The notes under the pieces were generated by a model. That model saw only the letters and a list, made by a program, of their open reading frames with translations. It did no database searches and had not been told where the DNA came from. Position numbers and translations under genes: made by a program. Of a stretch of DNA of 64,000 bases, positions 30,325 to 58,876 are shown piece after piece (positions within the stretch are counted from its first letter, which is position 1; each line of letters opens with the position of its first letter). Origin of the DNA: Podarcis liolepis (Eukaryota); the NCBI GenBank assembly GCA_965112155.1, contig OZ218115.1. One strand, written 5' to 3'.

Positions 30325-30326
<2 letters not shown>

Positions 30327-31394: not shown

Positions 31395-32149
31395 TAACTC
31401 TTGATGGGGTTACACTCCCTCTGAGGTGGACATGTAGCTTGTGGGTTTATCTGGATCCTTTACTGTTGCTCGAGGCTCAGGAGGCCTCAGTGGTGTACAG
31501 TACCTTCCATCAGCTTTTGCTTGAGGCCCAGCTGTACCCATATCATATCTGGACAGGGATAGCATAACTTAGGTCATCTGGCAACCTCTAGGTTTGATTA
31601 CTGCAACACGTTATATGTGGGGCTGCCTCTGAAGATGATTCAGAAACTTCAGCTGGTGCAGATTTGGTGGCCAGGTTGCTCACTGGGGCAAGACAGTTTG
31701 AGCATATTACACTAATCCTGGCCCAATGGTACTGGGTGCCATTTAAGTTAGACCAATAAAAAGTGCTGGTTTTGCACTATAAAGTCCTAAATAGCTCAGG
31801 AACGCAATACCTCAAGGACCGCCTTTCACCATATGAACCTATCCTGTGATCATTATCGGAGGCCCTTTTTCTCCACAAGAGGTCTGAATGGTGGTGACAC
31901 CAGAACAGGCCTTTTCTGCGGTGGTTCCCTTTTTGGAATGCTCTCCCCAGGGAGATGCCATATCTTTAGATGCCAGGTGTTTCTCTTCAATCAAGTGTTC
32001 AGCTAATTAACATTTTATGTGGAAGGGAGTTTGGTTTTTAAAAAATGTATTTTGTATTCTCATTTTGTATTTTTCTGTTATGAACTGTCCAGGGATCTTT
32101 GTTGGAAGTGCAGTATGCAAATTAATAATGATAATAATAATAATAATAA
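31395..32149 (+). mobile_element. Decayed L2-clade LINE fragment with (AAT)n tail
   Basis: TSRFDYCNTLYVGLPLKMIQKLQLVQ, similar to the ORF at 15957-16694. Confidence 0.82.
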
Positions 32150-35100: not shown

Positions 35101-35279
35101 TCTTAATGGCTGTTGTTTGAAATAATTTCTAGACCACCCTTTTTTTAAAAAATCCCAAACAAAACACATCTGAAAAATGGTTCCAGTAGTAGATAGGTAG
35201 CCGTGTTGGTCTGCCATAGTCAAAATAAAAAAAAAAAATTTCTTCCAGTAGCACCTTAAAGACCAACTAAGTTAGTTCT

Positions 35280-35320
35280 TGGTATGAGCTTTCGTGTGCA
35301 TGCACACTTCTTCAGATACC
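35280..35320 (-). ncRNA. Minimal type-I hammerhead ribozyme motif
   Basis: GGUAU-CUGAAGA-A-GUGUGCAUGCACAC-GAAA-GCUC-AUACC: stem I GGUAU/AUACC, palindromic stem II, AGCU helix III, CUC cleavage triplet. Confidence 0.82.
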
Positions 35321-35360
35321 TGGTATCTGAAGAAGTGCATGCACACGAAAGCTCATACCA
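35321..35360 (+). ncRNA. Minimal type-I hammerhead ribozyme motif (2-nt deletion in stem II)
   Basis: UGGUAU-CUGAAGA-A-GUGcaugcaCAC-GAAA-GCUC-AUACCA; 6-bp stem I; predicted cleavage after C35354. Confidence 0.78.
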
Positions 35361-37862
35361 AGAACTAACTTAGTTGGTCTTTAAGGTGCTACTGGAAGAA
35401 ATTTTTTTTTATTTTGACATCTGAAAAAGACCGTGTGAAAAAATGAACCCATAACCTAAGTTTAAGGTGCCATTTAGCTTCTAGCTTTCAAGGTGGTAGG
35501 ATGCTGGAGTAGATAGTTCTCATTTAGCAAGTCTAGCAAGGTTCTTCCTATAACTTGTGTGAGTCAATGAGTCCTGAGATAGAACTTTCATATGTTCTCA
35601 TGTCACCTCAAGAGAGACAAAAAGGAAATACAGTACAATATCCAAACTCAAAAGTAAGCTGAGGTGCAGAAATAGGTATGCATATAAATGTGTATATTAT
35701 ACACTCTCCCCCCAAATATGCATGTGTGCACACATGCAGCCCGCCTTTATGCGTGTTCAATATATTCACAACCATGCATACATGTCTTGTGCTGAACCTG
35801 GAAGTGACCTGGAAACGTCATAAAGATGTCACTAAAACATCACTAAAAAAGCGGAAGCCTGTTTCAAGGCTTTTTCAATGGGCTTCAGTTATACATGATT
35901 TCACTGACGCATGCAGTGCCTTGGAACATAACCCCCATGTAAACGAAAGCCTGCCTGTATAAATATTCATAATAAATATTTCTGACAAAACTGAAAACCT
36001 TGGTCTGAGGGGAAAAATATTTACAGGAAACTTACCTATCTTATCTGTAGAAAATCGGAGTACATATGATAAGTCTTGAAATATGTAGGTTGATATGAAG
36101 GTGGTGTTTTTCCTAGTGCCCAATCTGTAAATATAGATAATGCCAAATTCACCTCATGTCACTTTAAACATGATGCATCTCAATTGAGTTGTTTCACTCA
36201 TTTTGTTATTTGTCAGGTGCTGAATAATCAGATGATGTCTGAGAATATGTGAACTACATCAGTTATCTTTACTGGGAACTTATCTATCCACCCTTGCCCC
36301 CCATTTGAATAAATTATTGTAGCATGAAGAGCCTGGGTGAATTTAGTTGCATTAACTAAACTTTGTAAAGGATTATTAAGGCTTGGAATAATATTAGGCC
36401 AGAGGTTTGCAATGCTGCATTTTTAAATATGAGCAAAACACTCATGGATGAAAGATGGCAAATGGTTGAAATAATTTATAAGTTCATCTCATGTATTGCT
36501 AATCATGTTACCAGTTTTGAGAGCATACTTCTGCTAATGAAAGCCTGCATCTGAGACTTTAGGCATTTGACAGATGTAACATAAATTGCACTGTTAAACT
36601 AGCTGTGTCTATGAATAATAAAATCTGCAGACAGAAAAGTATTTCATAATTGAGGGGAAGATCTATTTCTGTATGGTATATTAATATGAAATATTGAAGT
36701 GAGTGAGAATTGTTCATTTTCACTCTGTATATATTGGGATATTCTCTCGCCCACTCCCCCCAAATACCAGCTGAAAAAATGTGAAGGGGTTCTTCAAGCA
36801 AGGGCATTTTGAGTCTGCAGCTCCTATTGATTTAAATGGGAGTTTAGTATCCATTAGCTTTCTGAATCAGCCCTAAGGCAGTTGAAGTACCAATGTCCTA
36901 TGTTATAAGGTACGGGAGCTGACATCTGCATAGCCAGAGTCCATCTGGATATGGCATAAAGTCAGCAATAGCTTAGCTAGAAATGAGGCAGAGATGATTT
37001 GGAGATGTTACTCTCTAGCATAACCTTTATGAAGCTGACAGCAGACTAAAAGATTTAATTCCATCTTTTCAGAAACAGACATAGAAATACACATGCCAGC
37101 TGATTATTTATTAGTCTTAGCAAGATATATATGCATAAAGTGTCCAAAATGCAGTCCAAGGCACATCTGTAAATAGATTTAATGAAATATATTGGACTTA
37201 ATTACAAATTAGCCAAGCATTTTGGCATTCGGTTAACCCAGGTTTTTTAAGCAGCTACTTGCCTACAGTGAGCAAGAACAGGTGCTCAAGAAGGAAAGCT
37301 TTTTAATATGGGATTGAATGTTTGTTTCAGGTTTCCTGTGCCATACAAATAACTAAAGCAGATATTTGATAAAGTAAGCTAGTTACAGTTTTGGTGGGTT
37401 GTTGATTTGCAGGAGTGAGTTGTCAGCTGCCCCTTTATTGCCTCCAGGTGTACAGCAGAGTAGCAACCATTGTAACTGGAAGAAGAATACTGTACACTGC
37501 TGACTGGATATGCTGTTGCAGTATTTTTGCATTACTCTCCTTATTTTGTAAGCACTGGGAAGCAAAACACGGCCACACTGCTTATGACTCATTTGTAACT
37601 GTCCTGTGATATGCTGTAGTACTCTGGAGTAGTTTGAGGTGGGAGAGTGACACTTGGTGGGGCAAGACAGGCCCCTTGATTAAAAGCGTGTTTAAACAAT
37701 TGTGTGAAAGAGGCAATGTAAAAGAAGTTTGGTAATGGTGAAGGAAGTGGCAGTAGTGTGAATACTTAAGAGTTATATTTTCCATATATAGAATGGCTGA
37801 GTATGGAACTGGCCATAGGTGATGTAGCTAATTTATATTAAGATGATAGAAGTATGATTATC

Positions 37863-38064
37863 AGTTCAGGGCTGCTGTGGACTATGCAGTGTCCACACTA
37901 CGTTCAGCATCAGTATGGCAAGCCGAGGTATGCCAGATTGCCCAAGGAGAGGCGAACTGGTCCCGGTTGGATACGGAGCAGGTAAAAACTCCCGTGCCAA
38001 TCAGTAGTGGGACTGCGCTTGTGAATAGCTGCTGTAACATTACCTGGGCAAGGCAGTGAAACCC
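37863..38064 (+). pseudogene. RN7SL: 7SL (SRP) RNA retro-pseudogene lacking the 5' Alu domain
   Basis: Colinear with the vertebrate 7SL S-domain and 3' end (GTGTCCACACTACGTTCAGCATCAGTATGG; CGGAGCAGGTAAAAACTCCCGTGC; TCAGTAGTGGGA; TGTGAATAGC; CCTGGGCAA). Helix-8 GAAA loop changed to GATA. Confidence 0.92.
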
Positions 38065-40911
38065 AGAATTGTGATTACTTTCAAAGGGGAAAAAGTGAAT
38101 AAAGGGAAATGGTGGCAGTAGTTGTGGAGAAGGCAGTACATGTTTGGTCTTCAAAACCATACCCACCCTTTTTTCTTCCCTTGCTCACATTTTGATTAAG
38201 ATCCTCCATAAAGAACAGTAGTTGAAAACTCAGAAGTTTGTTCATTACGCTGTGAGATTTTAGCAGTATTAATAAAGTTGTTATCCTACTGTGACTTTCA
38301 GATTTTTCTAATGGACCACTGTGGGTTACCTATGCTTTTTGTGCACTCTGGTGAATATCAAATTTTGTTATCCAAAAGAGAGGTCTTAGAACTATAAATA
38401 AATTTATCTACTACCACCTGAAGATGGAAGTTTACTTTGAAGGGGTTGCATGCTCGCAACCACTAAACAATATTCTGCTTGGCTGCTTTGGACTATTTTT
38501 ACCTGGTGCTTCAAAATTAATCTCCAGCTTGGCTGATATAAAAAATACAATGTTTTTCTTTACTTAATTTACTTCTGCTTTCTGTCTCACAAGAGAAAAG
38601 AAACCCTTGTGCTCTACTTGGTGCTGGTGAAAGGTCTGAGTGACTGCTGGCTTTAATAGTTTCAATTTAAAGACTACAGCCATTATTTTTCTTGGTTCCA
38701 GCAACACTTAGGTCCCATCTACATCATACATTTAAAGCACATCTTCTGCAAGAATCCTGGAAACTGTGGTTTATTTAAGGGTGCTGGGAATTGTAGCTCT
38801 CTCTGGGGTAAACTACTTTCCCCAGGATTCCTTTCTTTAGGGATGGGGCTTTGGTGTATGGTGTGTATGCACCTTGGCATGACCTTGAAGCTGTTTTGCT
38901 CCAAAGGGAGACTTGTTTAATTAAGGCTGTCAAACACCTGCATTATTTGTACAGTCCATCTTAATGCACTGCAGACTTTGGGCCTTAAATGTCATACCAC
39001 TTCCCCCCTCTATATCCCATCCTCATTTTTCTTAACATCCAGTCTGATAAAGTGTTGTGGAGAACTTGAAAGATGGTTCACTATTTGTAACATTTTTGCC
39101 GCTCCTAATAGAACCTGTATTAGCCTGTTTTTGAATCAGAATTAGTGTCTTAACAGGTTTGTGTTACAATGCCTCTGCCCCAAAACAATAAACCTAGCAA
39201 AGAGATGCCCTTATGCCTGCAGGTCTTGTTCTCAGTCTACTTTTAAAGTTCACTTTATTGCATGCACAACACAAGTTATTTTTAAAAACACATGCCATTT
39301 CTACTTCAATACAAACTTATCAAAGGAGCTAAAATGTGAAGAATTAACTACAGCTCCCTCTTAGATTGGGAACAAAACATCAAGCTGTCACAAGCTGAAT
39401 GACATCCAAAACTCTTTAAAGGGATATTGTCAGGGAAGAGAGAAGACACAATATTAGAACTAGTCGTTTTTTGAGGGGGGCAGGGAGAGTGAACTTTATG
39501 TACAAACAAAACATCAGTGATGGAGCCACTCTGGAAATACATTTCCTGCATTAATGTTTGAATTACTCTCTAGTGGAGCTTGGGGGGGGGGGGGAAACAT
39601 TTCTTCAAATTTGTCTTGGAAAACAGCTGTGTCCAGTGTTGTTTGGCTGCTGACCTTTGATGTCATGAACCAACCTCCCCCTTTTTCAAAGAAAAAGAGA
39701 TTGCTTTATAAAAACACATGAATGAAAATTTAATTGAATAAATGCACATGTAAAGCTTCAGAAAAAAAGAAAGCACACAACCTGTCTAAAAAGGGGGGGG
39801 GGAGGAGAGAGGCTGAACTACTAACTGAATTAGCATTTATATTGCTGGTAGGTCTGTCTGTCACATACCTTATGAAGGTGGGAGGATGCCAGGCTCACTA
39901 CAGGAGAAAAATCCTGCTGAGACCCCTCCTTTAACATTTCATTTGTACACAGCTTTCAAAAGCATCATTTTAATTACAAATTAACTGCTTCCATTTTTGC
40001 ACCTCTCTCCTCATCCTGTGTTTACAGAAAGAGCTGAAATTTCACTTGCAGGATGCATTGTTTTCTCTTGTATGTTTTTTTTTAAAAAAAATCTTTTGAT
40101 TATTGATAAAGCAGCGATTTTGTAGCTGTGCTTCATTCTGTCACACATCCAGGTATGGGTTTTCTCAGTGTCCTTTAGTGACTGAAGAGGCAAGCAAGTA
40201 TGTAGCTGGAATAAAAGGGGCAATAGGGATGTAGGCAGCAAAGGGAGAGGAAAAGATAACAGCTGGTGATGTTCATTAAAGCAACAAGGTTATCCCTGTA
40301 CAACAGGTTTCTCAGACTGAGGGTCAAATAAGACAATACTTGAAATTGGCTAGTGCATTTAGTGTTTCTGATTTTTCATATGTGGGAAGGGTTGGTTACT
40401 ACAATATGCATACGGGTTTGTGTTTCTTTAATGCTTTTTCTTTGCATTGTTGTCTTGTCAAAAACTAACCTCTCCTGAAGCTGTTTATTGCCTGCAAGGG
40501 GACCTTGGAGCTATATAGCAGGTTGTATCTCAGAATTAACTTTCTGAGATAAACTGTTTTCCAGGACCCTGGAAGTTTCTGGTGTGTGGTGTTAGTTTCC
40601 CAGCTTGAAATAGCTGTAGCTCCCTCTTTCAACTAGTAGCAATGGTATTTCAGGGAGTAGGAAATTGCTTGTGATGTAGGTTCCCTTTCTGTGGTGCTCT
40701 AATCAGGGTACAGAAGTAGCAGCTACACTTTTCATCCCTGAACCACCTTTGCCTCCAGATATCTTTCTGTAGTTGTCTTCATTCATCATTGGGCTCTGTT
40801 GCATTCGCCTCTTTACTATATTGTGAGTGTATACATAAACTTCTGTGGAAAATTCAAGGCAAAAACTTACGTAGAAAGTGTAGACAGAAATCTTCTATTC
40901 CAACTGCACAC

Positions 40912-41433
40912 TAGGGGTGGGCAATAACAGATTTTCAACATTGTGATATATTACCAGCCAAACATTGCAGTCTGGCGGTATACCACGATGTTGAAAAAAC
41001 AAGCTGCATTGGTCTCAGCCTGCAAGGCACCAGGTGAAATTGCCATACTTCTCACTGCAGGAGCTGAGGCAGTTTCACCCCAGCACCTAGCAGGCTGGGA
41101 CAACACAGCTTGTTTGTATGGCTCAGCCGGGCTGCAGGAGGGCTCCTGATCCCCAGCTGAGACATCCCAGTACGAGCGGGGAGAGCACCGGGGCTCCTTT
41201 GCGTGTCTCTGCTGGGGATCAGGAGGGCTCAACACCACAGAGCCATCCCTGGTGTGTCCCCCCCCCCCGTGTCAGTGCTGGATCGGGGGGTCCTTTAACT
41301 GCTTGGAAGTCGCTAGCAGAGGGACTCAGGAATGTGGGGGTTTCACCAGCGATATACCGCTGAGTGAAGCCAGCATCATGGTCTGCTCCTCATACCGGTC
41401 CTGGGTGAAATATTGATATATTGCCCAGGCATA
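40912..41433. mobile_element. Non-autonomous hAT element (same family as 59994-60858)
   Basis: TAGGGGTGGGCAATA / TATTGCCCAGGCATA ends. 8-bp TSD CTGCACAC / CTGTGCAC, both explicable as CpG decay of CTGCGCAC. Confidence 0.8.
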
Positions 41434-43365
41434 CTGTGCACCAATTTAATTGTTTAATTGCGAGCCTGTTTGAATCTAAACCAAGTTGGGCTTCATTTGT
41501 AGCTAGCTGGAAAGCAAGTAAAAGGGCTTGATTTTGAGTCAGTCTATGTAAGTGTCAGCTCCGTGACACAAGGTTTATTACTTTACATCTGTTCTGCCTG
41601 CCTGCATGCAGACAAGGGAGAGAAGTTATATTGTTGTCTTGCCCTGGGCTGTTTTTCATTGCATTCCTGTGACTAAAGCCTGTAGTGTGGGAATGTCTTT
41701 CTGCCCATGAGTTAGACATGGGATTTTTAACCTAAGTCAGTTTCAGAATATCTCTGCCTGACCAGTAGATTTAGAACAGTTTTGCCCTGCCTTTTCGTAG
41801 AGGCTCAAAGTAGCTTTCTAGTGTGCTATTGTAATCCTTTCCCTGTAATGATTTCTAGCCCCTAGTGGAATAGAGTGTTTCTGGAAAGGAAAATCTTAAA
41901 TTAGCCTTCAGTGTTGTGAATAGCATAGATATTTGTAAGTAAATTGTGGCTTCTAGCAACATGATGGAATGCATTTTGGGGAGGGAACTCCATGACATGT
42001 AGCATATTGCCATAATTTTAGACATTCTTTTGTGAAGTGCCATGCTTTAATGCACACATATTGCTCTATTGCATTACAAATACATCCCCTTAAATGTGCA
42101 AATTTACACCCTTAAACATGAAAGCTGAAATGGCAGGTGGCTATTTCCTGATTTATCATTCAGATATACAGGGGGCATTAAATACCTTTATGTGGCTTCA
42201 ACTGGTATTTCTTGTTGGAAAGATTAAAATGTAAGAGGAGGGGTTGGTGGACTGGCATTGCACTATGATGAGTATGACTGAAGGAAGAAGTGAACTGGAA
42301 GTTCTCATTTGTTCTGAAAGTGGATGGAAGATGTGCAGGTAGATTAAATGAATGTAGCAGAAGTAGTCTCATTAAATGAGAGTTCATCAATCTATTGTTT
42401 CAACAGTAGGTCACAATAGAAAACAAAAAGTAAATAATTACAGAAATAAAACATTTCCTTGAACTGACATTTGTGCAGGAAAAATAAAAAGATGATGTTC
42501 ACAAAATGCAGGAAAGAGCAGCGTGCTGGGGGAAAAAATGGCCAAATTTTGATAATTGTGTATGGATGATTTTTTTTAGGATAGTTTGTATATACAAATC
42601 TCAAAAGAATGTAGTTTTTTAGCCTAAGATCAAAGAACATATTCTATCATAAATTGTACCAATTTGTATCTCAAATGTGTTTTGAAAACAGTTGCTGGAG
42701 ATGGGCAGAGCAATCCTATACAGTATACCAATTATGTGGTGGTGGGAATATTGTGGTGGAACAGCATGCTGTATGTGTTCAGCCTGGGAGGAGAAAATAG
42801 TCGCAGAATACAAAAAGGCTTAAAAATAGCAGGCATCCCTGGAACGCCCATCAATAGGGGTGTTGGCTATAACATACATCCCTTTGCTGCCCACATTTGG
42901 AGCGAACCAGTTAGCTTATGATGACTGAGACACATGTCTTTGCATCATCATGCAACACACATGGTGATGCCAGAGCACCCCCAATCCATCAGCTTCAGTA
43001 GCCTGATCAGCAAGGAAATGTTACTGGTGCCCTCTATAACTACTGGTTTGGAGCAAAATGTGCTCTGCCTGAGGAGGGGACTGTAGTGACTTGTGAGTAT
43101 CCATATCCCTTCCCCTTTGGAGTTGCATTTGAGGTGTATGTGCAGTGGTAGTGATAGTTTGTTCTGTTCCATGCATCCTAGCTTTGATCCTGCAGGGAAA
43201 AAGCATGAGCATTTGGCTAGCAATGACAGTGAGTGGAGTGGAGTGTGCGGCTTGTACCAACAGAGAACTTGCTCTGTTGGGGTGGGGCAGGAAGTCTGTC
43301 TCCTTTGTGTGGGAGAAATACTTCTCCCACTGTTGGGGGTGGGAGGAAAAAGCAATGCTTCAGAC

Positions 43366-43530
43366 AAGAACATAAGAATAGCCAACCTATGGGAAGTTCA
43401 CAAGAAAGACCTGAGCATAACAGCACTCTCCCCACTTGTGATGCCCAGCACATTGACATTGAGAGGCATACTGCCTTCAACAGTGGTGGTAGAACACAGC
43501 CCTCATGACTAGTGGCCATTGATGACAAAA
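43366..43530 (-). mobile_element. CR1 LINE 3' fragment
   Basis: AAGAACATAAGAA tail and AGAGGCATACTGCC..CTAGTGGCCATTGAT. Confidence 0.65.
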
Positions 43531-44739
43531 TACATACGATGAAGGGGATGGGCCAAGACATAGAAAATAACTGCAGCAGTTATACTTGGTGGCATGATTG
43601 CCCACTTTATGGGATGTTCTGTCCCGACACCCCCAGTTGCAGGAGTAGGGGTGGTTGTTGGGCATTTGGGTCTGGTTTAGTAAAATAGGGGTGTTTTCAT
43701 GGCAGTGACATATCTGGTGGTGTGGTGGGGGGAAATCTACCATATCTTATAGCCTCTCGGCCATGGCTGCCATATTCCAAACAGTAAAAATCTCGACAGA
43801 AAAGTTGTTGGGCTTTCTTTTTTTGAGCTTTTGCAAAATCACATAAAAACTTGCTGTTTGGGGACTATTTTTATGGATTATGGGCAAAAATGACTTCCGA
43901 CATGGGCTGCCATACGTCCAGATTTTCCTGGACATTTTACCAACTTCCGCCCAGACACTGCTGCTGACTGCAGTATTCTGGGATATTCCAGACGTATGGC
44001 AACCCGAGAAGGATTGCTATGTTCAGAAAGAAGAAAGAAATGTCTGTGTTCTTACAAGAAAGTACTTTGGAGATTTTTAATCTGAAGGTGCCTACATTGC
44101 CTTTCTGGGCTGTGATATTATTTTGATTCTAGATGTTTACCTGCCCTTGCATTTATTTATATATATATTTATTTATTTAGATTTTATTTCTTTCAGACTG
44201 AGGGCTATACAACAGCATAGCTGTCTGCCCAGGCTGTTTTCTCTTTCGCCTCTTCTGAATACCATTCTCCCCCTGCTGCTCTGCACAACAATATTTGTTG
44301 TGTGAATGGGTTATTTGTTGTGTGGATGGGTTACTGTTGCTGAAAAGGGAAGCACAAAGGCTAAAATGTGGTTCCGGCGTTTGGGAGTGTATGTGGACAT
44401 GACAATATGGAACAATTATCTATAAACACTGGTGTCTTCATTGAGTTTTGTCTGTATTGCTGCAATTTGTATGATCACAACAAAAGGGGCTTCTGTAGTT
44501 AAATTAGAGTGACCACCTATACATTGTAGAGGGACCAGTTCCCATATCTTTGTGTGGGAGCAATCATGAGTGTGAGCAGAGTTAGAGAGAGAGATTGTAG
44601 TCTAACTCTCTTCCTGATGTGTTAAATTTTCTATTCACAGGTGTTTTATGTATGAGGGAGCATTAAAACATGCAGTTTGAAATGTGTAGTCCCTAGAGGG
44701 GTGACTATTCTGTATCTGGAGATCATCTCTAACGGAACA

Positions 44740-44921
44740 GGGGAAGGGGCTGCAACTCAGTTGTAGAACATCTGTTTTGCATGCAAAAGGTTCCATGTTC
44801 AATCTCCAGGTAGGGATGGGAATGTCCCCTGCCTGAAACATCGGAAAGCTGCTGCCAGTCAGTCTAGACAGTACTGATCTAGATGGACCAATGGTCTGAC
44901 TCAGTATAAGGCAGCTTCCTA
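44740..44921 (+). mobile_element. tRNA(Ala-like)-derived squamate SINE
   Basis: CTCAGTTGTAGAACATCTG..TTGCATGC..GTTCAATC head; CTAGATGGACCAATGGTCTGACTCAGTATAAGGCAGCTTCCTA tail. Related fragments at ~4440-4570, 61070-61180 and 63410-63478. Confidence 0.8.
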
Positions 44922-47900: not shown

Positions 47901-49831
47901 CTTCTCCATCATGTGCACATAGTTTATCAAATAGATGCCTCTGGTCAAAAGGATTTTGGAACCTATATAAAAACTTTCAATACATATTATCAAAGGTTGA
48001 AGTTGGATGAGTATACACATGAGCAGAGATCCTTCCTTAAAATTGCCTTTGAGTTCCTGAAAAGGTGACTGTACTTAAGCTGTAGTGGGGGAGAGAAACT
48101 GATGGCGGAGCACATGGGTGTGGGCAGGGGGGCAGCTGCCCCCCTAGATCAAGTAAAACAATAGAAATATTTAACTAGCTGACCAATCATGTCAGTTCTG
48201 CCCCCCCAGTCCTGCCCCCCCCCCCCACGGAGGAAATGGGTATGTGGTATTTCAAGAAAGGCATTTCTATCTCAGCTTTGCAGCATCATATAAAATACCA
48301 AAACACAGTGGTATTTTGATCTCTGGTGCTTTTTAGAGTTAAGCAAACAGTTTTCATATGAGAAAGGAGGCAAAAAGATTATTCTTTACACAACTCTCTC
48401 CTACAGTCTCACTGTAGAATTCACTTAGCATAGCTCTCCTCTGGTCTTGAGACATGACCCTTGGGTTTAGCAAACAGAAACTACCACAGGGAAAGAAAAG
48501 CAAAGGGTAGTGTGCTGAATGAAAGATTGATATCAATAGGTCATAGGGCCATTGTTTTGCTCAAAGGCTGCTTTAAGTATGCATTTACATTTCTGTTGAA
48601 TATTCAGTAAGCATTTTTCCCTGCTATTATGTGTGTGCTGCTAGCATCCTGGTGCTCTGAAAGAAGGGTTAAGAGTTCAGAACATAAGCAATTGATGATA
48701 AATTCCAGCCTCTTAGGGGTCTGGGTCTCCTTTCCTTGCATCTGTTTCCATTGATGCATTTGCCGCTAGAAATGAATGTATCGCGGCACACAGAAGCATC
48801 TGCATATATTTGGTTTCCCCCTACGTTGCAACCACCTCTGAATCTTTCTGAGTGTATATTTTAGTTTAATGATAGTCATGTCTCTTGACTTCTAGTCACG
48901 TGAACACATTATTTGAGGACAAAGTAGATGTAATACAGAAGATTGGTGAGTAGTAGCTCCCCAAGTGCTGAATTCCTAATATACTCTCTCCCTGCTGTTG
49001 CTCTTGACACTTATTCAAAAAACGGAGATCTAATTGAAGAATTTCTTGCATCATGTCTAGTAGGTCCATAACAGAAAGGGTGTGTGTGTGTGTGTTGCTG
49101 TAGAAAAGTGAAAGGTCTGTGGAACTTTCATCTTCGCTTGCATATGCGTTTCTTAAAGTTGTAAGCTTAAATCTGAAATTCTTTGTGGCCTTTAGGTGTT
49201 CTTGCTGCTGATTATTATTGTTGTCAAAGAAGCCTCACTTGTTTCTGACCTCGCTGAAAACACCTACATGTTGAACTGGGGTTTGCATTTGAAGCAAAAT
49301 ATTCTCCTTGATTTGTACATCCACTTTCATTCATGTCTCAGCATTTTTTATGTCTCGGTGTAAATTGAACTGTGTTCTGTACAGTATTTTCCTTCCCTGC
49401 TTAACTGGGTACAGTAGCCAAGCTGACATTCAGACAGAACTCTGCCAAAATAAACAAAAAAGGAAAAACCAACCATCCATGGAATTGCGCCCTGGATGTT
49501 TGTACCAGGTTTCATTCTAATATTGTAGCCATGAGGTGTGAAAAAGAACAACATAAATATTCAGGGAAGAAGGAACATTCTTCCTCAGGATCTTTTCAGA
49601 ATCCACTCCTCTCCCCTTCCAGGAAACTCCCATGAAATACTTTTATCTTTTGAAGTGAGTTAAATGCTTTTTGAGACAAGTTTTTATCTATATAAAAATG
49701 TTTGTACCTCATATTTTGGGAAAGGCAATCTACCGCATTTGAGAATGATAATGTGCTATTGAAAAGTGTTGTTATCCAGATTAAATTTGACATGCTGCTG
49801 GGCTCTTAGTAAAAGAACAAGTGCAATGTTC

Positions 49832-49833
<2 letters not shown>

Positions 49834-49870
<37 letters not shown>
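49834..49870. repeat. (CA)n microsatellite
   Basis: Direct inspection. Confidence 0.95.
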
Positions 49871-49871
<1 letters not shown>

Positions 49872-50329
49872 TTTAGTATGACTGTATAAGACTGCTTCTG
49901 TTGCCAGATAAAACACTTTCTTCCAATGCATGGCTTTGTTTCTATTTCCAATTCAACCCTCCTCCCCTCAACAAAGCCATTCTCAGATGGCAAAAGCTAA
50001 GATACATTTGCTTAGGTAGCATAGATACAGCCACGTGTGTGTGTGTGTTTGTGTTTGTATCTCGCTTGTATTGAATATATTCACAAGTTTGCTTAGACAA
50101 AACTAAGACATTTGTTCTTTGGAGACTGCAAGCCTATAGCGTTCTTGCTTGGGAGTAAGCACCACTAAACAGATTAGGTATGTTTTCTGAGTAAACATGC
50201 ATAGCATTGCTCTGTAAATTTAATAAATTTGCCAAGTAGGTATAATTATAGTATGCTAACTACCTTATAAATTATGCAATTTATATTAAAACAGTAAGAC
50301 AAATTTAGGTTTTATAAGAAAGGAGTGTA

Positions 50330-50685
50330 CAGTGGTGCCTCGCAAGACGAAATTAATTCGTTCCGCGAGTTTTGTCGTCTTGCGATTTTTTTCGTCTTGC
50401 GAAGCACGGTGTCGGGAAAGTTTTGGAAAAGCTTCAAAAATCACCAAAGTCTTTAAAAACCTCAAAAAAGGCTTACCACACCGCGTTCTATGAGTTGCTC
50501 CTCGAAGTCAAGTCGCAACTGTATTAACGGTGTTAAGAAAAAGGAAACAAACTTGCAAGATGTTTCCGTCTTGCGAAGCAAGCCCACAGGGAAAATCGTC
50601 TTGCGAAGCAGCTCAAAAAACAAAAAACCCTTTCGTCTAGCGAGTTTTTTGTCTTGCGAGGCATTCATCTTGTGAGGTACCACTG
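50330..50685. mobile_element. Tc1/mariner MITE (same TIR family as 3507-3911)
   Basis: TA|CAGTGGTGCCTCGCAAGACGAA ... TTCATCTTGTGAGGTACCACTG|TA. Confidence 0.9.
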
Positions 50686-51112
50686 TATTTCAATTTCCCT
50701 ATTTCTGTTTTCCCTGTGGCTGCAACAGTGTTACATCTTTAGTTGTAACGCTAACCTTTATTAACAAAGTGTCAAAATGGTGAGTTAAACCAAAGGCCTT
50801 ATGTCACTAGGCCAATAAACTGTTTCAGCCTTAACAAACTGCCTTTTCCTGCTTGCCCCCTTTCCCTTCTTAGAATCTTCTGACATTGCAGCTTTGCAAG
50901 GTCCCTTCTCCACTTACCATGTAGCACCTGCATTTCCTCTTGTCGGACGCATGTACAAGCACATACACAAATACAGTCATTTGATCAGCTGAGGCACTGG
51001 GGCCATACATATCTGCTGCCCACACAACTCCTGCTCCTGCTCTCTCCCCCCAGCTTGTTTTGATCTTCTGCAGAGGTGCAATGTGATTGTTGATGCTGTT
51101 GCTGTTTGTTTG

Positions 51113-51302
51113 TTTATCACATTTACATACCACCTTTATCTTCCAAGACTTTCAGGGTGGTGTGCATGGTTCTCCTCCTCATTTCATCCTCACAACAACC
51201 TTGTGACTGGCTCAAGGTTACCTAATGAGCTTCGTGGCTGAGTGGGGATTCAAATCTTACTCTCCCAGGTCCTAGTACAACATTCTAGTACTCTACACTG
51301 GT
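51113..51302 (-). mobile_element. MIR-like/CORE SINE
   Basis: ATCCTCACAACAACC..GCTCAAGGTTACC..GAGCTTCGTGGCTGAGTGGGGATTCAAA. Confidence 0.7.
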
Positions 51303-52346
51303 TCTTCAGAGTGCTTGGGACAGTGTAAATGGTCTCATATTATCATTGGAACAGCCCCATGAACTAGGCTAGAGAGGAGAGATGGGGATTTGCCCAAGGC
51401 CCACCCTGCTTCAGAACTGGTAGAGAAGAGTGGGGTTTGGGTCATCACTCTCCCTTTTAAAAGTCTGATCCACATAATCTGTGACACATTGACAGACATG
51501 GGTTGAAGATGGGGTTGCATTCACTCTGTGAAGATAAGCCATGACCACCCAAATCTTTCTGCAGCATCATAGCTTCCTTGTCTCTGTGTATATTAATAAC
51601 TTCAAGTATGCTAAGATAACAGTTTGATTTAGATTGGAATCATTTGTGGTGGGGGAAAAATATGTAGTATGGAAAGTGTCTGCACTTCTGAAAAGCACGC
51701 CGCCAAGAATGATCTGTTAGTAGGGAAGGGGAGAAAAACAAGAATTCACTTTCAGTTGAGCCAACTAGGATTGTTTTGTTGTTACTGGTGTAATTTATGC
51801 TCTTTGTAAATTTTGAAGTGCACCTAAACTGGGAGGCTGTGTTGTTGTTTATATACATATATACTAGGAGTACAGATTCCAGGATTCTTGTACTTCCTTT
51901 CAAACCCAGCCATTGTATCTGTTAAAATCTGGCTTGAGTCAGACTGAGCCTCTTTGCCAAAATTCCTATCCAAAGGAGCCAAGTTCCTACTTTTTTTTTT
52001 GTAAAACTTCTTGGTAATATAATTTTACAGTCACAGCAGTTTACAGTTTCATTCCTACTGTGATATGTCTTATAGCTCTATTGGCAGGATTGGGAACCAA
52101 CAGGAGAGTTACCCACAATGAGAGTTGATAATATAAAAATAAATTAGGGGGGGTTACAGCTTTGTCTATTTGTCAATCTGTTTATGTCAAAATACTCCTG
52201 CCACTGTTTCATAAGCAGCAGTATACTAGTTGCTGATAAAATTCCTTTGGGATCCACTGTCCTTCCCTCTCATAGTGACTCAGAAAGAATTACAGTGCCA
52301 AAGGCAAGTCAGTGGGGCTGGTAGCTAAGTGGTAGAGCCACTAGGA

Positions 52347-52478
52347 TCATAGAATTGTAGAGTTGAAGGGTACCCTGAGGGTCATCTAGTCCAGCCCCCG
52401 CCATGCAAGTATCCTGTCCACAGTCGTCCCTGGGTGAACTCGAACCACCAGCCTTCTGGTTAACACCCATTGTACCAC
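52347..52478 (-). mobile_element. Short tRNA-derived SINE with CR1-type tail
   Basis: ATCATAGAATTGTAGAGTTG tail; B-box GGTTCGAG on the minus strand. Confidence 0.7.
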
Positions 52479-52732
52479 AGCATACTTTGCATGAAAGTCT
52501 TTGGATCATTCTGCTGTACATTTTATGATGAACTCAAGTACAGGGCATTGGACATTAGAAAGCCATTGCTGGGGTGTACTTTGCTGCAAGGGGCCAATGA
52601 TCTTCATAAGGTAATTCCACATGCTTAGCTATTCCTCTTTTTTTTTAATGGCAGTTCAAGGATCAATCAACATTATATCTGCACTAGCCTTACGTGTAGA
52701 ACAGTAGGAAGCGATACCCTAGTAGGATAAAG

Positions 52733-53109
52733 GGACTGATTCAGACATTGTGTTAAAACCATAGTTAAGGTTAAAAATCCCTGCTGCACTCCTTCTTTCT
52801 TTGCTTGGGTAACAAACCAAACAGAAGCTGGCTTTGTGTGTGTTTCTCTCCAAACAAACCATGAGTGGAAGCCAAGGCTTGCACTTTGCTTATTACTTAA
52901 GGTTTGTTTTGGAGAAACAAACCAGGAGAGCCGGTTCACACATAACTCAAAGACATCCTGTGGTCTCTTTCTTCCCCAATGTGCCAATGGAAGCAACAAT
53001 GGAAGAATGCATCATGGACTTTTGAGCAGTGTACCCCAACATACCGCTTGTTCACATTAAACCCCAGTATAACCTTAACTATGCTTTAAAGTGATGTCTG
53101 AACCTGGCC
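52733..53109. mobile_element. MITE, possibly PIF/Harbinger-like
   Basis: Inverted ends TTCAGACAT..ATAGTTAAGGTTA / TAACCTTAACTAT..ATGTCTGAA. Confidence 0.6.
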
Positions 53110-53229
53110 ATTAATCATGCTCCTAATAGGTCAGGCATCTGATTATTCTATTTTCTAGAAGAGAGGAAATAATGAATTGTAACTATGTAAGATGTGCCAA
53201 AATGATTCATTGTCAAACTGAAACATGTT

Positions 53230-53456
53230 TCCAGTAGTAGATAGGTAGCCGTGTTGGTCTGCCATAGTCAAAATAAAAAATTCCTTCCAGTAGCACCTTA
53301 AAGACCAACTAAGTTAGTTCTTGGTATGAGCTTTCGTGTGCATGCACACATGCACACACATCTGTGTATCTGAAGAAGTGTGCATGCACACGAAAGCTCA
53401 TACCAAGAACTAACTTAGTTGGTCTTTAAGGTGCTACTGGAAGGAATTTTTTATTT
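53230..53456 (-). mobile_element. Short palindromic Penelope-like insertion
   Basis: Perfect 15-bp TSD AAACTGAAACATGTT (53215-53229 / 53457-53471); inverted arms. Confidence 0.9.
53366..53403 (+). ncRNA. Minimal type-I hammerhead ribozyme motif
   Basis: GUAU-CUGAAGA(53370-53376)-A-GUGUGCAUGCACAC-GAAA(53392-53395)-GCUC-AUAC; predicted cleavage after C53399. Confidence 0.8.
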
Positions 53457-53788
53457 AAACTGAAACATGTTAGGTACAAACATACAGTCCTTCTGGGAGA
53501 AAAGAGCTAAACAGTTTAACTAAAATAAAAGAGCATTCTACTCATATTTAGTGTTCAGCTTGATATTAGCTTTGCATTAAATTATTTCTATGTGCAGTGG
53601 CTCTTTCCTTCCACAATTTATAAACTGGACAGTTTATTAAGTATTTTTTTAAACTTCATAACATTGTGGCAAATAATTGATACTGTTTGAGCAATAGTAG
53701 GATAATCCTGTGTATGGAAATGAGTTTCAGGGTGTTGGGGATTTCTTGGGTTGAGTACAAACTACCCAGATGAATACATCAGAAGACT

Positions 53789-54207
53789 GGCTTAGTTTGC
53801 ATGTAACATTAAGCTAAACCATGGCTTAGCACAAACCAATTAATGTGTGGGTTTCCATAGCAAAGATTCCAGTCATTTTGCTCCTTCTCTGGTTGTCCTG
53901 CTACTATTTTGCTGTAAGTCAAGCCGGATTTTGTCTTTGCATTATGTCCAAACCTGGGCTCACGGTTTATCTCCTGTAGACAAGCCATGTTCAGTAAGCC
54001 ATAGAACAAACTTTGGCTACAGCTTGTGGTTTGGCAAGAGCAAGAGATATCACAAGTCCAGGTTTCGACGTAACACTAAGCAGAATCATGGGTTTACTCA
54101 CAGAAATTTGGGAACAGCATGATCTGAAGCGACCATTATTTTATGTCCAGGAAATTTCTCATTTAGGCTATGCCATGGTTTAGCTTAGTGTTACATGTGG
54201 CCCAGGT
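53789..54207. mobile_element. MITE or composite MITE with 26-bp inverted repeats
   Basis: CATGTAACATTAAGCTAAACCATGGC (53800-53825) versus GCCATGGTTTAGCTTAGTGTTACATG (54172-54197). Confidence 0.65.
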
Positions 54208-55660
54208 CTGTGTGCCACAGTGCTACACTTTAAAAGTCCTCATGTTTTTGAAACACCCCTCCTCACTAAATGACATCGCTGTTAGGACTGGGAAAGCTAA
54301 TCTTTAAGTAGAGTGGAAGCCTCCAGAATGCTGGTTCTCTCAGACTTCCTTGTGTTAGGTCATTTGAGTAGAAAACATTCAACATTTTCTGCTAAAAACT
54401 TCTGTAATTCATTGATTTGTGTGTGTATGTATATTAAAATCTGAATTAGGATCTCTATTAAAATAAAAGATACTTATGGGTTTCTGATTTATTTATTTTT
54501 TGCCTGCATATTTTTTGAAAGTTTGTGATAGTACATATTTAAGTTTTTGGCAGCAGCTGCATTGTCCATGTTTGAAGTGAAAACTATTAATCTAAGCAGC
54601 TAGAAATGCTAAGGGCTAAAAATGCTAGTGGAAGCTAGGATTCTCAGGATTTTAAGAGCATCTAGGCTGCAGAAACCAGTTTTTTGGTGATATAAATTGT
54701 TGCCCGCCCCCAATTAGTAGAATTAACTTTCAGTATAGTGTTATGTGAATACTGTTGCCCTGAGTCCCTTTCAGTGTACTTGTTTTTGGAAAGAAGATGT
54801 CTTTGCAGGTCTTGCTTTATTCTTAGCCTCTCACATTCCAAGTATTACCTTGGTGCTTAGTTAAAATAGTGAGGTCTGTTATGGATAATTTCTTTGCAAC
54901 TGACGATTTTGGCTTCCTGGATTTGAAATGACGAGGCACCTTTGAACTTGCAAGAACTTAATTTTTGCAGCATTTTGACTACAAATATTTATTACAACTG
55001 CCATTCCTTCCCCTAAAGGAGACTGGAAATAGTATTTCAGGGCACTGGGAATTCAGTGTGCCCCATAATCCCTTCTCACAGAACTACAATTCCCAGGGTT
55101 TCTTGTGGGAGGAGAAATGATTCGAGTGTTAAACCAGCCTGTGCAGTGTTTCTATTTTCCAGTTCATTGCTCCCATTTCCCCATTGCTTAGGCCTCATAT
55201 GATATCTTAAGGTGGTTTGTCTAAGATGCTACATACCACAGTTACTCAGATATAGTTTTCTTGGCCCTTTCCCTTACTCCCTTGTGATAATAATTGCACA
55301 AGTCCACTAATTACATGAGCTCAGTATGTTGACTATTAGAGATGAAACAGGATACCCCTTGTTGGCTATTAGAAGAAACGGGATACCCCATCTTTTAATG
55401 AAAATGCAAACTATATTGTGTTAGATCTATTATTTTAATAGATACTCGTACCTTTTTTGCCTCTATTTTGAATTCTGTACCAGTACACTGCAAGTTTAGA
55501 TGTGGCTTTGAGGTACATTTCTGCATAAAGCCTAAGGTATACTTGGACAACCAAACTACCAACACCAAAGCTTATGGAATCCTTACCATTTGGTTACTAT
55601 ATTGATTGCTTTTTTTTTTAAGTTTTGTTTGTAAGTAGTCCAGGGAATATTTTTTGGTAT

Positions 55661-55803
55661 TAGAATCATAGAATTGTAGAGTTGGAAGGGACTATGAAAG
55701 TCATCTAGTTCAACCCCCTGCAATGCAGGAATCTTTTGCCCAGTATGGTGCTTGAACCCACAGCCCTGAGATTAAGTCTCATGCTCTACCGACTGAACTA
55801 TCC
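55661..55803 (-). mobile_element. tRNA-Lys(CUU)-derived SINE with CR1-type tail
   Basis: Minus-strand head TCAGTCGGTAGAGCATGAGACTTAATCTCAGGG..GTGGGTTCAAG resembles tRNA-Lys-CTT; tail TTCCAACTCTACAATTCTATGATTCTA. Confidence 0.85.
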
Positions 55804-55804
55804 A

Positions 55805-56490
55805 ACATTATTTTTTTCTGGCATCAGTCTGTCTTGAGAGACAATGGAGTGTGCATCCAGGGGTGAAAACAAAGCACTGGAGAATCGAAGTGCCTGATGT
55901 GGCTGCAGAAACTGGTAACTCACAACTACATTGATTTGCTGCGTTAGCAGCCCTGAAGTGACCTCTCTGGGGCGCAAGCCTGAGCAGTGCGTATGGAGGT
56001 CCTGGGTTGCCCAGAAAACAAGACGTCTTGGCCTCACCAGTGTGGTGCAAAGGAAAGCAGAGCAATACACTTGGCACCCGCTTGGCTGTGGGAGTTGCCA
56101 GAAGGAGGCATACAAGGTGCCAGCAAACTGCCTAAGGGACTCCACCGGATTTGTGTAGGGTTTACTTGTTAGCTTTTTCTTCTCCCAAAGATCTCCTGCA
56201 AGGCAGCAGGTATGGATTTTTTCTTGGGGATTATTCATAAAGCCTTTCTCATGAATGAGTATAGCCGCAAGGCAGCAGAGGTTTCAAATCAGGGTTATCC
56301 TTCTCCTAGATGGGCTACTGGTAAAGCCCGAGACTCTTAATCTCAGGTTCGTGGGTTTGAGCACCACACTGGGTGAAAGATTCCAACATTGCAGAGGCTT
56401 GGTCTACATGACCCTCATGGTCCCTTCCAGCTCTGATTCTAGTTTCCCTGGTTGATGAGCCCCATATGCCCCTCATTTCCCTCTACAGCA
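55805..56490 (-). mobile_element. Non-autonomous RTE-like element, interrupted by a SINE
   Basis: 3' end CCATTGTCTCTCAAGACAGACTGATGCC and 5' region CCCATCTAGGAGAAGG resemble RTE-clade ends; no ORF. Confidence 0.55.
56319..56443 (+). mobile_element. tRNA-Lys-derived SINE, second copy
   Basis: GAGACTCTTAATCTCAGGTTCGTGGGTTTGAG head; GGTCCCTTCCAGCTCTGATTCT tail. Confidence 0.8.
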
Positions 56491-57947
56491 CATGAATCCA
56501 ACATTAAATGACTAATAAATAAATACAGTACTACAACTTAATGGAGCTACTGGACATCTGCCCTTCAGATATTCACATTAACATTAGATGATTTTTTAAT
56601 TATAAGTTGAAGCCTAATAGCGCATTCTAGAATGTATTGCCACTTATACTATCTTTGCTTAGGTAACAGATAAAATTAACTGTCTAAAAAATTATTGCCA
56701 TGAAATTCACATCTGTATAATTGATTTTAAAATAGTTGACTCTTGTGAGCCAATGGAGCAATAATAGATTTTTTTAAAAACACACACACAAAAAACACAC
56801 ATTGGGCTTTGTTCTACACGGAGGGAGGGCAGCCAGATGGCACAAGTTTAAGGCCTTAGTGAGATTTGACCCAGGGATAGGGTGGGGGGTTGATTATGTA
56901 TTATTTCCAGTGTCTTGGGTTGCACTTCATTTGCATATTTTGAAATGGAGCTAGAGAGTCACTTTGTGAACAGTTTATTCAGCAGAATACTGGGATTGGA
57001 GTCCTAAAATCAGAACCCTGAATAATGAAATCATAACTACAGCATACAGCTGTAGTTGTACCTTGTAGAAGAGGAATAATTCTGCAGATTTGAGAAAAGA
57101 AGCTGTACAGTGACTTGAAAGATGCAAGCAAATTATTGGGTTGTTGTTTTTTAATACAGTGAGTGAATTTGAGCTGTTCATTGATTCATTCATTTGTTAC
57201 ATGAATAATCCCACCTTTCCTTCATAAGAACTGAAAGTGGTGTTCATGGTGTTCCCGGGCAGTGTGCAGTATGGGTACAGACAAGAACCAAACCGGTTTA
57301 AATTTAGCAAGGTGGCTATATCACATGTCTTCAGACCAGCAGGACTTTTTATATAGAAATAGATATCTAGAACTAATCTGTAATATTAAATAATTAAGAT
57401 GTTTTGGGATGGGGTAATAGAAAGTTGAACAAGTTAGAAAATATTACCAGGGTATTTTGTAAACATGCTGTCAAAAGTTTCTAGTGGCATTCGTAATACT
57501 TTGAAAACGTGTAAGTGTATATAATATCTATATAATATAGAGAAAAGTAAATGCTGAGCTTGAATATTGCCCTTCATGAAAACAAGACTGGGACAGATGC
57601 TCACTAATTGGAGCGAGACCAAGACAGACAGGGAGAGTGAAAGTTAATTTATGTTTGACGGGCCATGAAATAACTTTTTCATTTTGGCCCTAGCATGTCA
57701 TTCTGTCTGACTATTAATGTGAATTGCTGTACTAAGCACTTCCATCTACTATAAGATCCTCAAGGCGAGGCAACAGAATCCTGCTTGATTTTGTACATAT
57801 ATACTTCTGTTTTAAGGTGCAAGTCACCTTGTGAGTTTCACCTACTTGAAGTCTGTTGTGAAGAATTCTGCCATCTGTATTTAAATATTCTGCAATTGTC
57901 GTGAACAAGCACTTGGAAAATTGATAGGTGTTCAGTAATGGTGTTGT

Positions 57948-58292
57948 ATACCTGAAGGAACGTCTCCACCCCCATTGTTCAGCCTGAACACTGTGGTCCC
58001 ATTCTGGGGGTGTTCTGGCAGTTCCCTCACTGTGAAAAGTGCAGTTATAGGGAACCAGGCAAAGGACCTTCTCGGTCGTGGTGCAATCCCTGTGGAACAC
58101 CCTCCCATCAGATGTCAAGGAAATAAACATCTATCTGACTTTTAGAAGGTATTATAAGACAGCCCTGTACAGGTAGGTTTTTAATGTTTGATGCCTCAGT
58201 GTATTTTATATTCTGCTTGAAACTGCCCAGAGTGGCTGTGATATAAGTAATAAATTAATAATTAACAAGATGATGATGATGATGATGATGAT
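57948..58292 (+). mobile_element. L2-clade LINE 3' fragment with (GAT)n tract
   Basis: Reverse-complement similarity to 15870-16205 (YLKERLH...GTRQRTFSVV). Confidence 0.85.
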
Positions 58293-58620
58293 AGAATCTT
58301 CAGGTTGGCCACAAGTCATTGAGGATGGCAAACTATTTTTTGTTGTAGGCTACCACATTTCTGTGCTAAAAGCAAAAAAGAAGAAGCAAAAACCCATCAA
58401 GAATGTACAAAAATAAGGGGTCTTGCCGGGGGGGGGGGTTCTTTTGTGCTGCTGAATATATAATTTACACTTACATGACTAATACTTAAACACTGATTTG
58501 TGAGAATACTTGTCATAACCTAAGGTTTTAGTCAAAATATTGTGGGCAAAATGAATAAAACATTTTGGGGAATCAGAAGTGCAGGATTGAGGGAGAAAAT
58601 TCATCTAACATATATATTCA

Positions 58621-58876
58621 CAGTAGTAGATAGGTAGCCGTGTTGGTCTGCCATAGTCAAAATAAAAAAAATTCCTTCCAGTAGCACCTTAAAGACCAAC
58701 TAAGTTAAGGTGCTACTGGAAGGAATTTTTTTTATTTTGACTATGGCAGACCAACACGGCTACCTATCTACTACTGGAACCATGGAAGGCACCACATTGA
58801 GCCGCATGAAATGGAAGTCCATCAACCTCACCTAACTTAGTTGGTCTTTAAGGTGCTACTGGAAGGAATTTTTTTT
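58621..58876 (-). mobile_element. Rearranged three-segment Penelope-like insertion including the ORF start
   Basis: TSD ATATATATTCAC (58610-58621 / 58877-58888); ~70-bp inverted arms; ATG 58782 opens MEGTTLSRMKWKSINLT. Confidence 0.88.

Follow-up and report, generated by a model that had tools for sequence, protein, structure and literature searches.

The window analysed here, 64,000 nt of Podarcis liolepis contig OZ218115.1 (assembly GCA_965112155.1), carries the first coding exon of RNF38 and three short insertions of a Penelope-like element (PLE), copies 1 to 3 (Table 1). RNF38 is a + strand gene. Its intron 1 (~43 kb) opens with a GT donor at 24052, and exon 2 lies 3 kb past the window end. 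All three insertions are between these exons; an earlier, sequence-only reading of the window had placed them in one intron of a host transcribed from the + strand, and in this it was right. No RNF38 protein match was found at 24100-67000 with any of the nine homologues compared (9/9), and a Pfam scan of 91 window ORFs gave no host exon in the stretch from 24 to 64 kb. The scan also gave weak matches at 49405 and 60038, both below the Pfam cut-off, which were set aside.

The three inserts are ORF-less stumps, 227-255 bp long, of the element's front end. We numbered the element from the first C of its CUGAAGA core (+1). The tail arms of the copies are 0-1 substitutions apart, apart from the length of the U-run, and each copy has its own TSD (12, 15 and 12 bp), in agreement with the earlier proposal of near-identical, independent and young PLE insertions. 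The common start point claimed for them was also confirmed: their left ends are ~7 nt apart at most, just 5′ of the ORF's ATG. This point is the family-wide end of the element (the "tail") and is not peculiar to RNF38 intron 1.

Table 1. Host exon and parts of the three insertions, with positions in the window.
Feature	Position	Strand	Element span or remark
RNF38 first coding exon	23520..24051	+	sits in CpG island
Copy 1 TSD, 12 bp	left 35166..35177, right 35417-35428		
Copy 1 tailed arm	35178..35319	-	-3 to about +133
Copy 1 tail-less arm	35323..35416	+	-3 to about +90
Copy 2 TSD, 15 bp	left 53215..53229, right 53457-53471		
Copy 2 tailed arm	53230..53349	-	+9 to about +130
Copy 2 tail-less arm	53361..53456	+	-8 to +88
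Copy 3 TSD, 11-12 bp	left 58610..58621, right 58877-58888		first base ambiguous
Copy 3 tailed arm, coreless	58622..58707	-	+42 to about +127
Copy 3 middle arm, coreless	58705..58832	+	+57 to +183
Copy 3 third piece, partial tandem, coreless	58832..58876	+	+41 to about +85

The copies differ in their hammerhead cores. In copy 1, the - strand of the tailed arm carries an intact core, 35319-35282 (35315), and the tail-less arm has a + strand core from 35327, with a predicted cut after 35354, in which stem II is short by 2 nt (3 bp left). Folding predicted the tail-less arm to be fully paired to the left arm and the - strand core to be masked likewise by its partner arm. In copy 2, the + strand core (53366-53403, start also given as 53370; predicted cut after 53399) is the family's commonest core, and the tailed arm lacks CUGAAGA, leaving the - strand without a core. 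The left arm is predicted to bury the 3′ half of the copy 2 core, with the CUGAAGA strand unpaired in the loop. Copy 3 has a core on neither strand. Its middle arm, which spans the ORF's ATG (58782) and the first 17 codons, pairs with the left arm in a perfect 72-bp stem; its third piece stops at the tail-less end point. All three copies are predicted to form near-perfect + strand stems of 72-105 bp, at -150 to -169 kcal/mol. The sense-strand hammerheads of the sequence-only reading are thus present in copies 1 and 2 and absent from copy 3, copy 1 having a - strand core as well, and for copies 1 and 2 folding supports the claim that a complementary arm precedes and would sequester the + strand core.

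The three stumps belong to a young, abundant Neptune-type PLE. The genome contained 9,879 exact hammerhead cores and 8,666 exact tail 26-mers; for head-to-head pairs with a short loop there were 3,596 matches, a number in which some loci count on both strands. [quoted passage not shown] Copy 3 carries the first codons of this RT ORF. The linker CX4CXXC in L159, L128 and L160 fits the CX2-5CXXC motif between RT and GIY-YIG, a feature of the Neptune clade that is common to Nematis too (PMC8557442). Placement in this clade is putative, coming from motif and domains. Traits of EN+ PLEs were also found: pLTRs arranged inverted or as partial tandems, and a tail of 30-40 nt on one end only. A TATA/Inr-like pair precedes the probable RNA 5′ end at about -3 to -8. 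The locus is an ordinary one, holding three among ~ten thousand stumps. A reading of the inserts as MITEs was rejected, since the arms vary in 5′ extent, run into the RT ORF and have no fixed terminal repeats. A reading as miRNA genes was also rejected, as Rfam miRNA models at these places scored below gathering thresholds.

The presence of three copies of the same polarity in one intron had been singled out as notable, but it is no more than expected by chance. One tail polarity in three copies has p = 0.25. We examined 99 loci at 0-8 Mb of contig C1, which give 97 consecutive triplets. Of these, 7 spanned <=23.7 kb; they made up 5 separate clusters, and a single polarity was seen in 1 of the 7. 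Under a uniform model, about 68 bins of 43 kb with >=3 copies are expected genome-wide. The insertions are nonetheless dense locally, with three copies in RNF38 intron 1 versus one in the next 200 kb.

From contig C1 we took the first 100 cores listed, and a census of the 73 ten-kb regions surrounding them gave 95 insertions with 146 arms (arms grouped with a 92% identity filter; L090, L139 and L149 had no arm group and are outside the 95). Head-to-head pairs were the commonest layout (46/95), and tail-to-tail pairs were absent (0/95). One tailed and one tail-less end were found in 44 of the 46 pairs, as in all three window copies. A TSD was detected in 43 of 46 sampled pairs and was 12-13 bp long in 29 of 46. 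Arms started at -10..0 in 53 of 146 cases and at +29..+33, the expected start of a cleaved RNA, in none (0/146); the element's own RNA therefore shows no trace of cleavage.

We consider it highly probable (roughly 0.85) that the three copies are independent ORF-less insertions whose head-to-head hairpin is the family's usual product and likely neutral for RNF38. From the genomic anatomy we infer the following route. The endonuclease would make staggered cuts, offset by 12-13 nt, in AT-rich DNA, and both cut ends would prime reverse transcription on the element RNA, starting at about +120 to +135 (the tail end) and at about +85 to +95 (the U-run). Each cDNA would extend to the RNA 5′ end, about -3 to -8 behind the TATA/Inr-like pair, or halt earlier, and the two cDNAs would be joined head to head. 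Any core would then be buried, as predicted, whichever strand is transcribed, as a by-product. In vitro, in work on a Poseidon element and not a Neptune one, both strands were cut and extended, with two internal RT starts that match the tail (PMC11167929). For PLEs, inverted pLTRs in head-to-head order, a tail on one side, a TSD and TATA/Inr have already been published (PMC3846280, PMC8557442).

The hairpins could also be made by fold-back self-priming on one template, as suggested in PMC3846280, and would still be neutral by-products. Many arm junctions are short palindromes; the two arms agreed in U-run length in 11 of 13 pairs versus 8.6 when shuffled (>=11 in 191 of 10,000 shuffles); and a private G-to-A change is common to both arms of copy 1. 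In 14 of 44 pairs, copy 1 being of this kind, the arms are nested and fold-back fits equally. However, a fold-back copy must lie within its template arm, and in 30 of 44 pairs each arm has sequence of its own, with the tail-less arm extending further upstream; copy 2 is also of this kind. We therefore favour two-ended target priming and regard fold-back as unlikely. Across 48 pairs, 2 variants were in both arms and 29 in one arm only; since most changes arose after insertion, these counts say nothing about origin.

The cores raise the question of cleavage. Minimal type I traits are intact in copy 2 (+) and copy 1 (-), and the copy 1 + strand core has a 3-bp stem II. As in the minimal type I PLE hammerheads of PMC4209133, the cores have CUGAnGA and GAAA boxes, a 4-bp stem I, an extra base between A9 and 10.1, a G10.1-C11.1 pair and a palindromic AGCU where stem III would be. 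Unlike those, the copy 1 + strand core has its stem II shortened, and copy 3 is coreless. No hammerhead family was found at E <= 1 in an Rfam scan of the window, and the window copies are predicted to be unable to form the hammerhead fold. As a minimal type I hammerhead without a stem III of its own, the ribozyme is likely near-inert in pre-mRNA, masked or not. In a Poseidon element, not a Neptune one, the ribozyme was dispensable, and inactive without the element's protein (PMC11167929).

The sequence-only reading had also raised cutting of intron 1 by copies 1 and 2 dimerising through their AGCU half-helices 18 kb apart. In both + strand cores CUGAAGA, GAAA and the palindromic AGCU are retained, together with 4-6 bp of stem I. 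Dimer cleavage is the accepted mode for such ribozymes (PMC6765202), and one study cited there reportedly shows it, to judge by its title. Against this, opening both hairpins would cost ~94 kcal/mol summed versus about -4 for the AGCU duplex, by secondary structure alone without Mg or tertiary terms; stem II of copy 1 is down to 3 bp; none of the 146 arms starts at the cut site; and cleavage is low even for close dimers (PMC4209133). The folding makes cutting across 18 kb, at a cost of about 90 kcal/mol, energetically implausible, and we give this idea almost no weight.

Selection for masking is another possibility: unmasked sense hammerheads would cut pre-mRNA and be purged, and hairpin copies would survive in introns. 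Burial of the two + strand cores is predicted to be favoured by 53.9 and 40.5 kcal/mol over a hammerhead-compatible fold, 68 of 115 cores in the census sample were masked, and RNF38 intron 1 showed no unmasked sense core. However, because a head-to-head repeat is symmetric, the antisense arm is read first from either strand and a core is hidden whichever way it points. The hairpin is also present in copy 3, which has no core, and minimal hammerheads on their own did not show cleavage (PMC4209133). In addition, unmasked sense cores were found in introns of RTRAF-like (L132), PRPF39-like (L091), CDKN3-like (L149) and NID2-like (L131) genes. The L132 core is flanked by two matched RTRAF-like exons, and the L131 core has one mismatch.

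Of the 115 cores, 45 were unmasked (no antisense arm within 1.5 kb), and their orientation relative to a strand-skew proxy of transcription was 23 to 22. The mean of the proxy, -0.003 +/- 0.006 (n=45), comes from clustered loci in one 5.8-Mb region, where only a near-total purge would be detectable; inside RNF38 the proxy worked, all 8 ten-kb bins between 20 and 100 kb having values of +0.05 to +0.16. An exon search near unmasked cores covered 50 loci, with 178 plus 26 candidate exons, and gave Pfam matches at 11 loci. At 8 of these the core was placed in an intron, 4 sense and 4 antisense, a number at which a moderate orientation bias would escape, in an assembly that records presence, not population frequency. 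Two more were uncertain (L109 and L156, both of which would be sense), one (L133) was upstream of a promoter, and 39 of 50 loci stayed unplaced. A literature search on PLE orientation in introns found no paper testing it.

In this small sample, then, the unmasked cores gave no sign of the orientation bias that the test proposed earlier would look for. The equal numbers of sense and antisense unmasked intronic cores suggest that masking is unnecessary, and, the layout being the family default, the idea that the hairpin makes an insertion tolerable was not supported. The hairpins are likely not a protective device against the element's ribozyme, and selection for masking seems very improbable. 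We judge equally improbable its extended form, in which the hammerheads would cut host pre-mRNA given two unmasked sense cores per transcript, the head-to-head mode would lower this cost, and selection would favour self-masked copies, aiding copy number.

The stems might also act as dsRNA. In general, long inverted repeats in introns serve as substrates for ADAR, and ADAR or Dicer action on the predicted 72-105 bp stems is plausible. That editing or small RNAs alter RNF38 processing is a further step, to which the near-perfect predicted stems of all three copies would lend themselves. However, hairpins in introns are commonly edited, mostly with no consequence, and the copies are young, each one of thousands; such an effect on RNF38 is a slender prospect. 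In a related species' run, + strand RNA reads were found at RNF38 exon 1 at low depth. A look-up of recorded RNA sets holding the exon 1 stretch gave none, which does not bear on expression. Mapping of reads and contigs to 22801-42800 was dominated by family-wide repeat reads, and none of the contigs mapped there spanned the copy 1 site. In the RNA run, A>G and T>C numbered 48 and 52, similar to the 57 and 58, and 100 and 103, of two DNA-type runs; these counts pool all repeats of 22801-42800 in other animals and are not informative on editing at these loci.

The usual hairpin product of this family resembles those of known systems. Like Pen2a_Av and other EN+ PLEs (PMC3846280), it has head-to-head pLTRs, a 30-40 nt tail at one end, a TSD around the unit, a TATA plus Inr-like motif and partial tandems. 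The TSD is 8-10 bp in the Pen2a_Av type and mostly 12-13 bp here, and, unlike that type, the copies here are 227-255 bp ORF-less lizard stumps in a family with about 10,000 near-identical cores. PAc, the Poseidon of Anolis carolinensis, belongs to another clade. It likewise has two internal RT starts bounding the tail, AT-rich targets and no sign of cleaved RNA as template (PMC11167929). The starts of PAc are about 110 nt inside the ORF, which begins within the ribozyme, whereas both end points here lie ~100 nt downstream of the ribozyme and precede the ATG.

Although the locus itself matters little, the family offers good natural material: two RT start points and a probable 5′ end of the RNA can be read from its near-identical copies, and the arms that are not nested bear on the way in which PLEs produce inverted repeats. 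Given an annotated genome of a lacertid, the orientation test is feasible on thousands of loci; a positive result would be rare in vivo evidence of cutting by a PLE ribozyme.

The three Penelope-like element (PLE) stumps in RNF38 intron 1 lie where the sequence-only reading had placed them, and its anatomy (positions, target-site duplications or TSDs, and arms, i.e. element pieces in one orientation) was mostly right. Each copy has its own TSD; they are therefore separate insertions. The tail arms, which carry the family-wide end, differ by 0-1 substitutions plus U-run length, and the TSDs are perfect, suggesting young insertions. That all three bear sense-strand hammerheads did not hold: such cores (38 nt, with CUGAAGA) were found only in copies 1 and 2, and copy 3 has no hammerhead core. 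Each antisense arm places an AATAAA hexamer on the host sense strand (intron background, 1.3 per kb).

Features of the three copies, the window and related loci (element numbering: +1 = first C of CUGAAGA)
Feature	Position	Strand	Details
Copy 1	35178-35416		TSD 35166/35417, 12 bp
Copy 1 arm		-	-3 to about +133
Copy 1 arm		+	-3 to about +90
Copy 1 core	35327	+	stem II short by 2 nt
Copy 1 second core	35315	-	intact
Copy 2	53230-53456		TSD 53215/53457, 15 bp
Copy 2 arm		-	+9 to +130
Copy 2 arm		+	-8 to +88
Copy 2 core	53370	+	intact
Copy 3	58622-58876		TSD 58610/58877, 12 bp; first base common to TSD and element
Copy 3 arm		-	+42 to +127
Copy 3 arm		+	+57 to +183; crosses ORF's ATG at 58782
Copy 3 third piece		+	+41 to +85
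AATAAA, copies 1, 2, 3	35224, 53272, 58661	+	
Young LINE-like candidate	8631-11106	+	695-codon open frame; RVT_1 8678-10765
Direct repeat bracketing it	8631-8699, 11038-11106		69 bp, 99% identical
G+C-rich array	17216-17700		~110-bp units, direct and inverted order
Partial Metazoa_SRP match	37863-38050	+	81 bits, model 65-277 of 299
Long family frame	L159:5074-7566	+	831 codons
RTRAF-like sense cores	L132:6961, L132:3304, L133:3038	-	G000:C1, about 4.77-4.78 Mb

The claim that the copies share one intron transcribed on the + strand was confirmed. A CpG-island exon (23520-24051), followed by GT at 24052, codes for 177 residues that match the beginning of a lacertid lizard's RNF38 at 87% identity. 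When that protein was mapped on the window and the next 200 kb, exon 2, preceded by a pyrimidine-rich AG, fell ~3 kb beyond the window end, with the later exons downstream, all on +. None of 9 RNF38 homologues matched 24100-67000 at the protein level, where non-coding or unannotated exons could remain. In a related species' RNA run, the first mate was on - in 8/8 and 3/3 reads at two exon positions (low depth); in most stranded libraries this indicates + strand RNA. The intron also holds an SRP RNA match above the gathering score, probably a retrocopy. Upstream of RNF38 are a G+C-rich array and an RVT_1 frame that may be a young LINE-like insertion, either with a duplication of unusual length or nested in another repeat.

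The family is abundant. In the 1.57-Gb genome, the tail 26-mer has 8,666 exact copies, the core 9,879, and short-loop head-to-head matches number 3,596; reversed-pattern controls gave 0. In longer copies the element continues into an ORF whose RVT_1 and GIY-YIG domains are joined by a CX4CXXC linker. By the linker criterion of PMC8557442 this would be a Neptune-type EN+ PLE. TATA-like and Inr-like motifs ~31 nt apart, directly upstream of the core, may act as a promoter pair. At L159, one of the ~10-kb regions sampled around cores, a frame open from ATG into the endonuclease domain lies behind a partial-tandem pLTR and fits a recently active family. Partial tandems at L017, L030, L011 and L010 restart at -3 to -11 and stop at various points over the first 220 nt of the ORF, a pattern that template jumps at the RNA 5′ end would give.

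Masking, the presence of a complementary antisense arm near a core, is not special to this intron. The sample was 73 ten-kb stretches flanking the first 100 cores listed for contig C1 (from one region, conditional on an intact core); its 95 arm groups comprised 46 head-to-head pairs, 1 three-arm variant, 45 single arms (some being halves of wider pairs) and 3 tandems; none was tail-to-tail. One end was tailed and the other tail-less, ending at a U-run, in 44/46 pairs. PMC3846280 describes the same head-to-head layout, as the most frequent arrangement, along with a one-sided tail, TSD and TATA/Inr in PLEs. In such a pair the antisense arm is met first whichever strand is read.

TSDs of 12-13 bp in 29/46 pairs correspond to a staggered cut. 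Arms are joined head to head, their 3′ ends fall in two fixed zones, and their 5′ ends pile up at -3 to -8. Both target ends would prime cDNA at two start zones, and the two cDNAs would then be joined. By analogy, the anole protein, which cuts and extends both strands (PMC11167929), lends support to two-ended priming. Hairpins might instead arise by fold-back, as nested or equal arms in 14/44 pairs (including copy 1, whose arms have a private change in common) and matching U-runs in 11/13 pairs would allow. However, in 30/44 pairs, copy 2 among them, the tail-less arm extends further upstream and neither arm is contained in the other; because each holds sequence absent from its partner, fold-back copying cannot give such pairs. 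We found no open-access paper stating two-ended priming for PLEs.

Folding predicts that the hairpins sequester the + strand cores, as proposed: forcing the hammerhead stems would cost 53.9 kcal/mol in copy 1 and 40.5 kcal/mol in copy 2, where pairing is limited to the core's 3′ half. The - strand core of copy 1 is predicted to be buried exactly like its + core. As a minimal type I hammerhead, the ribozyme has AGCU where stem III would be, and its native stem I is 4 bp long. Single motifs showed no cleavage and dimers low cleavage in PMC4209133; rates were very low, dimers included, in PMC6765202, which also refers to a paper whose title claims dimer cleavage. PMC11167929 reports that the anole PLE ribozyme cleaved solely with the element's protein, that insertion does not require the ribozyme, and that reads did not end where it cuts. 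Among 146 arm starts in the C1 sample, 53 were at -10..0 and none at +29..+33, indicating uncleaved RNAs as the insertion templates. Dimerization of copies 1 and 2 across 18 kb, suggested earlier as a way to cut the intron, is energetically very unlikely, with a predicted ~94 kcal/mol to open versus ~4 gained, and dimer cleavage was low in PMC4209133.

Clustering is not special either. On C1 0-8 Mb (99 loci), 7/97 consecutive triplets span <=23.7 kb, forming 5 clusters; in one of these triplets all copies share a polarity. Under uniform placement, a 43-kb bin holds three or more copies with p = 0.002, and ~68 such bins are expected genome-wide; p = 0.25 for one polarity in all three copies. 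The start point that they share is the tail end common to the family. Only a single copy lies in the next 200 kb past the window, which speaks against ordinary clustering.

The idea that the hairpin makes insertion tolerable was unsupported. Of 115 cores (<=1 mismatch), 68 had an antisense arm <=1.5 kb upstream, 2 downstream only, and 45 on neither side. Strand skew, which served as a proxy for the direction of transcription and is positive all along RNF38, split these 45 as 23 / 22 (mean -0.003 +/- 0.006); on this sample it could detect a near-total purge only. An exon search near unmasked cores at 50 loci found Pfam-matched exons in 11 and placed eight unmasked cores in introns, under gene labels that we assign by Pfam family and gene order. 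Four were sense: L132 (RTRAF-like, between two matched exons), L091 (PRPF39-like, after the CpG island and ahead of the first exon matched) and L149 (CDKN3-like), all exact, and L131 (NID2-like, with a single mismatch, at 11.1, and lying ahead of an internal EGF exon). Four were antisense: L121 (glycogen phosphorylase), L098 (Ig-domain gene), L125 (proteasome ATPase) and L157 (RAI16-like, between two exons). Two others, sense if correctly placed, are uncertain; one lay upstream of a promoter, and 39 loci were unplaced. No open-access paper testing intronic orientation of PLEs was found. The comparison could be blurred, as lone antisense copies expose AATAAA and lone sense copies the ribozyme. 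The placed cases show that unmasked sense cores persist in introns, with n=8 leaving room for moderate bias.

The three-copy locus is real, ordinary and of a known kind, and a protective role of its hairpins is unsupported. The RTRAF-like gene, whose introns hold three sense cores in a span of ~7-10 kb (one unmasked, two masked), is a better cleavage test case than RNF38.
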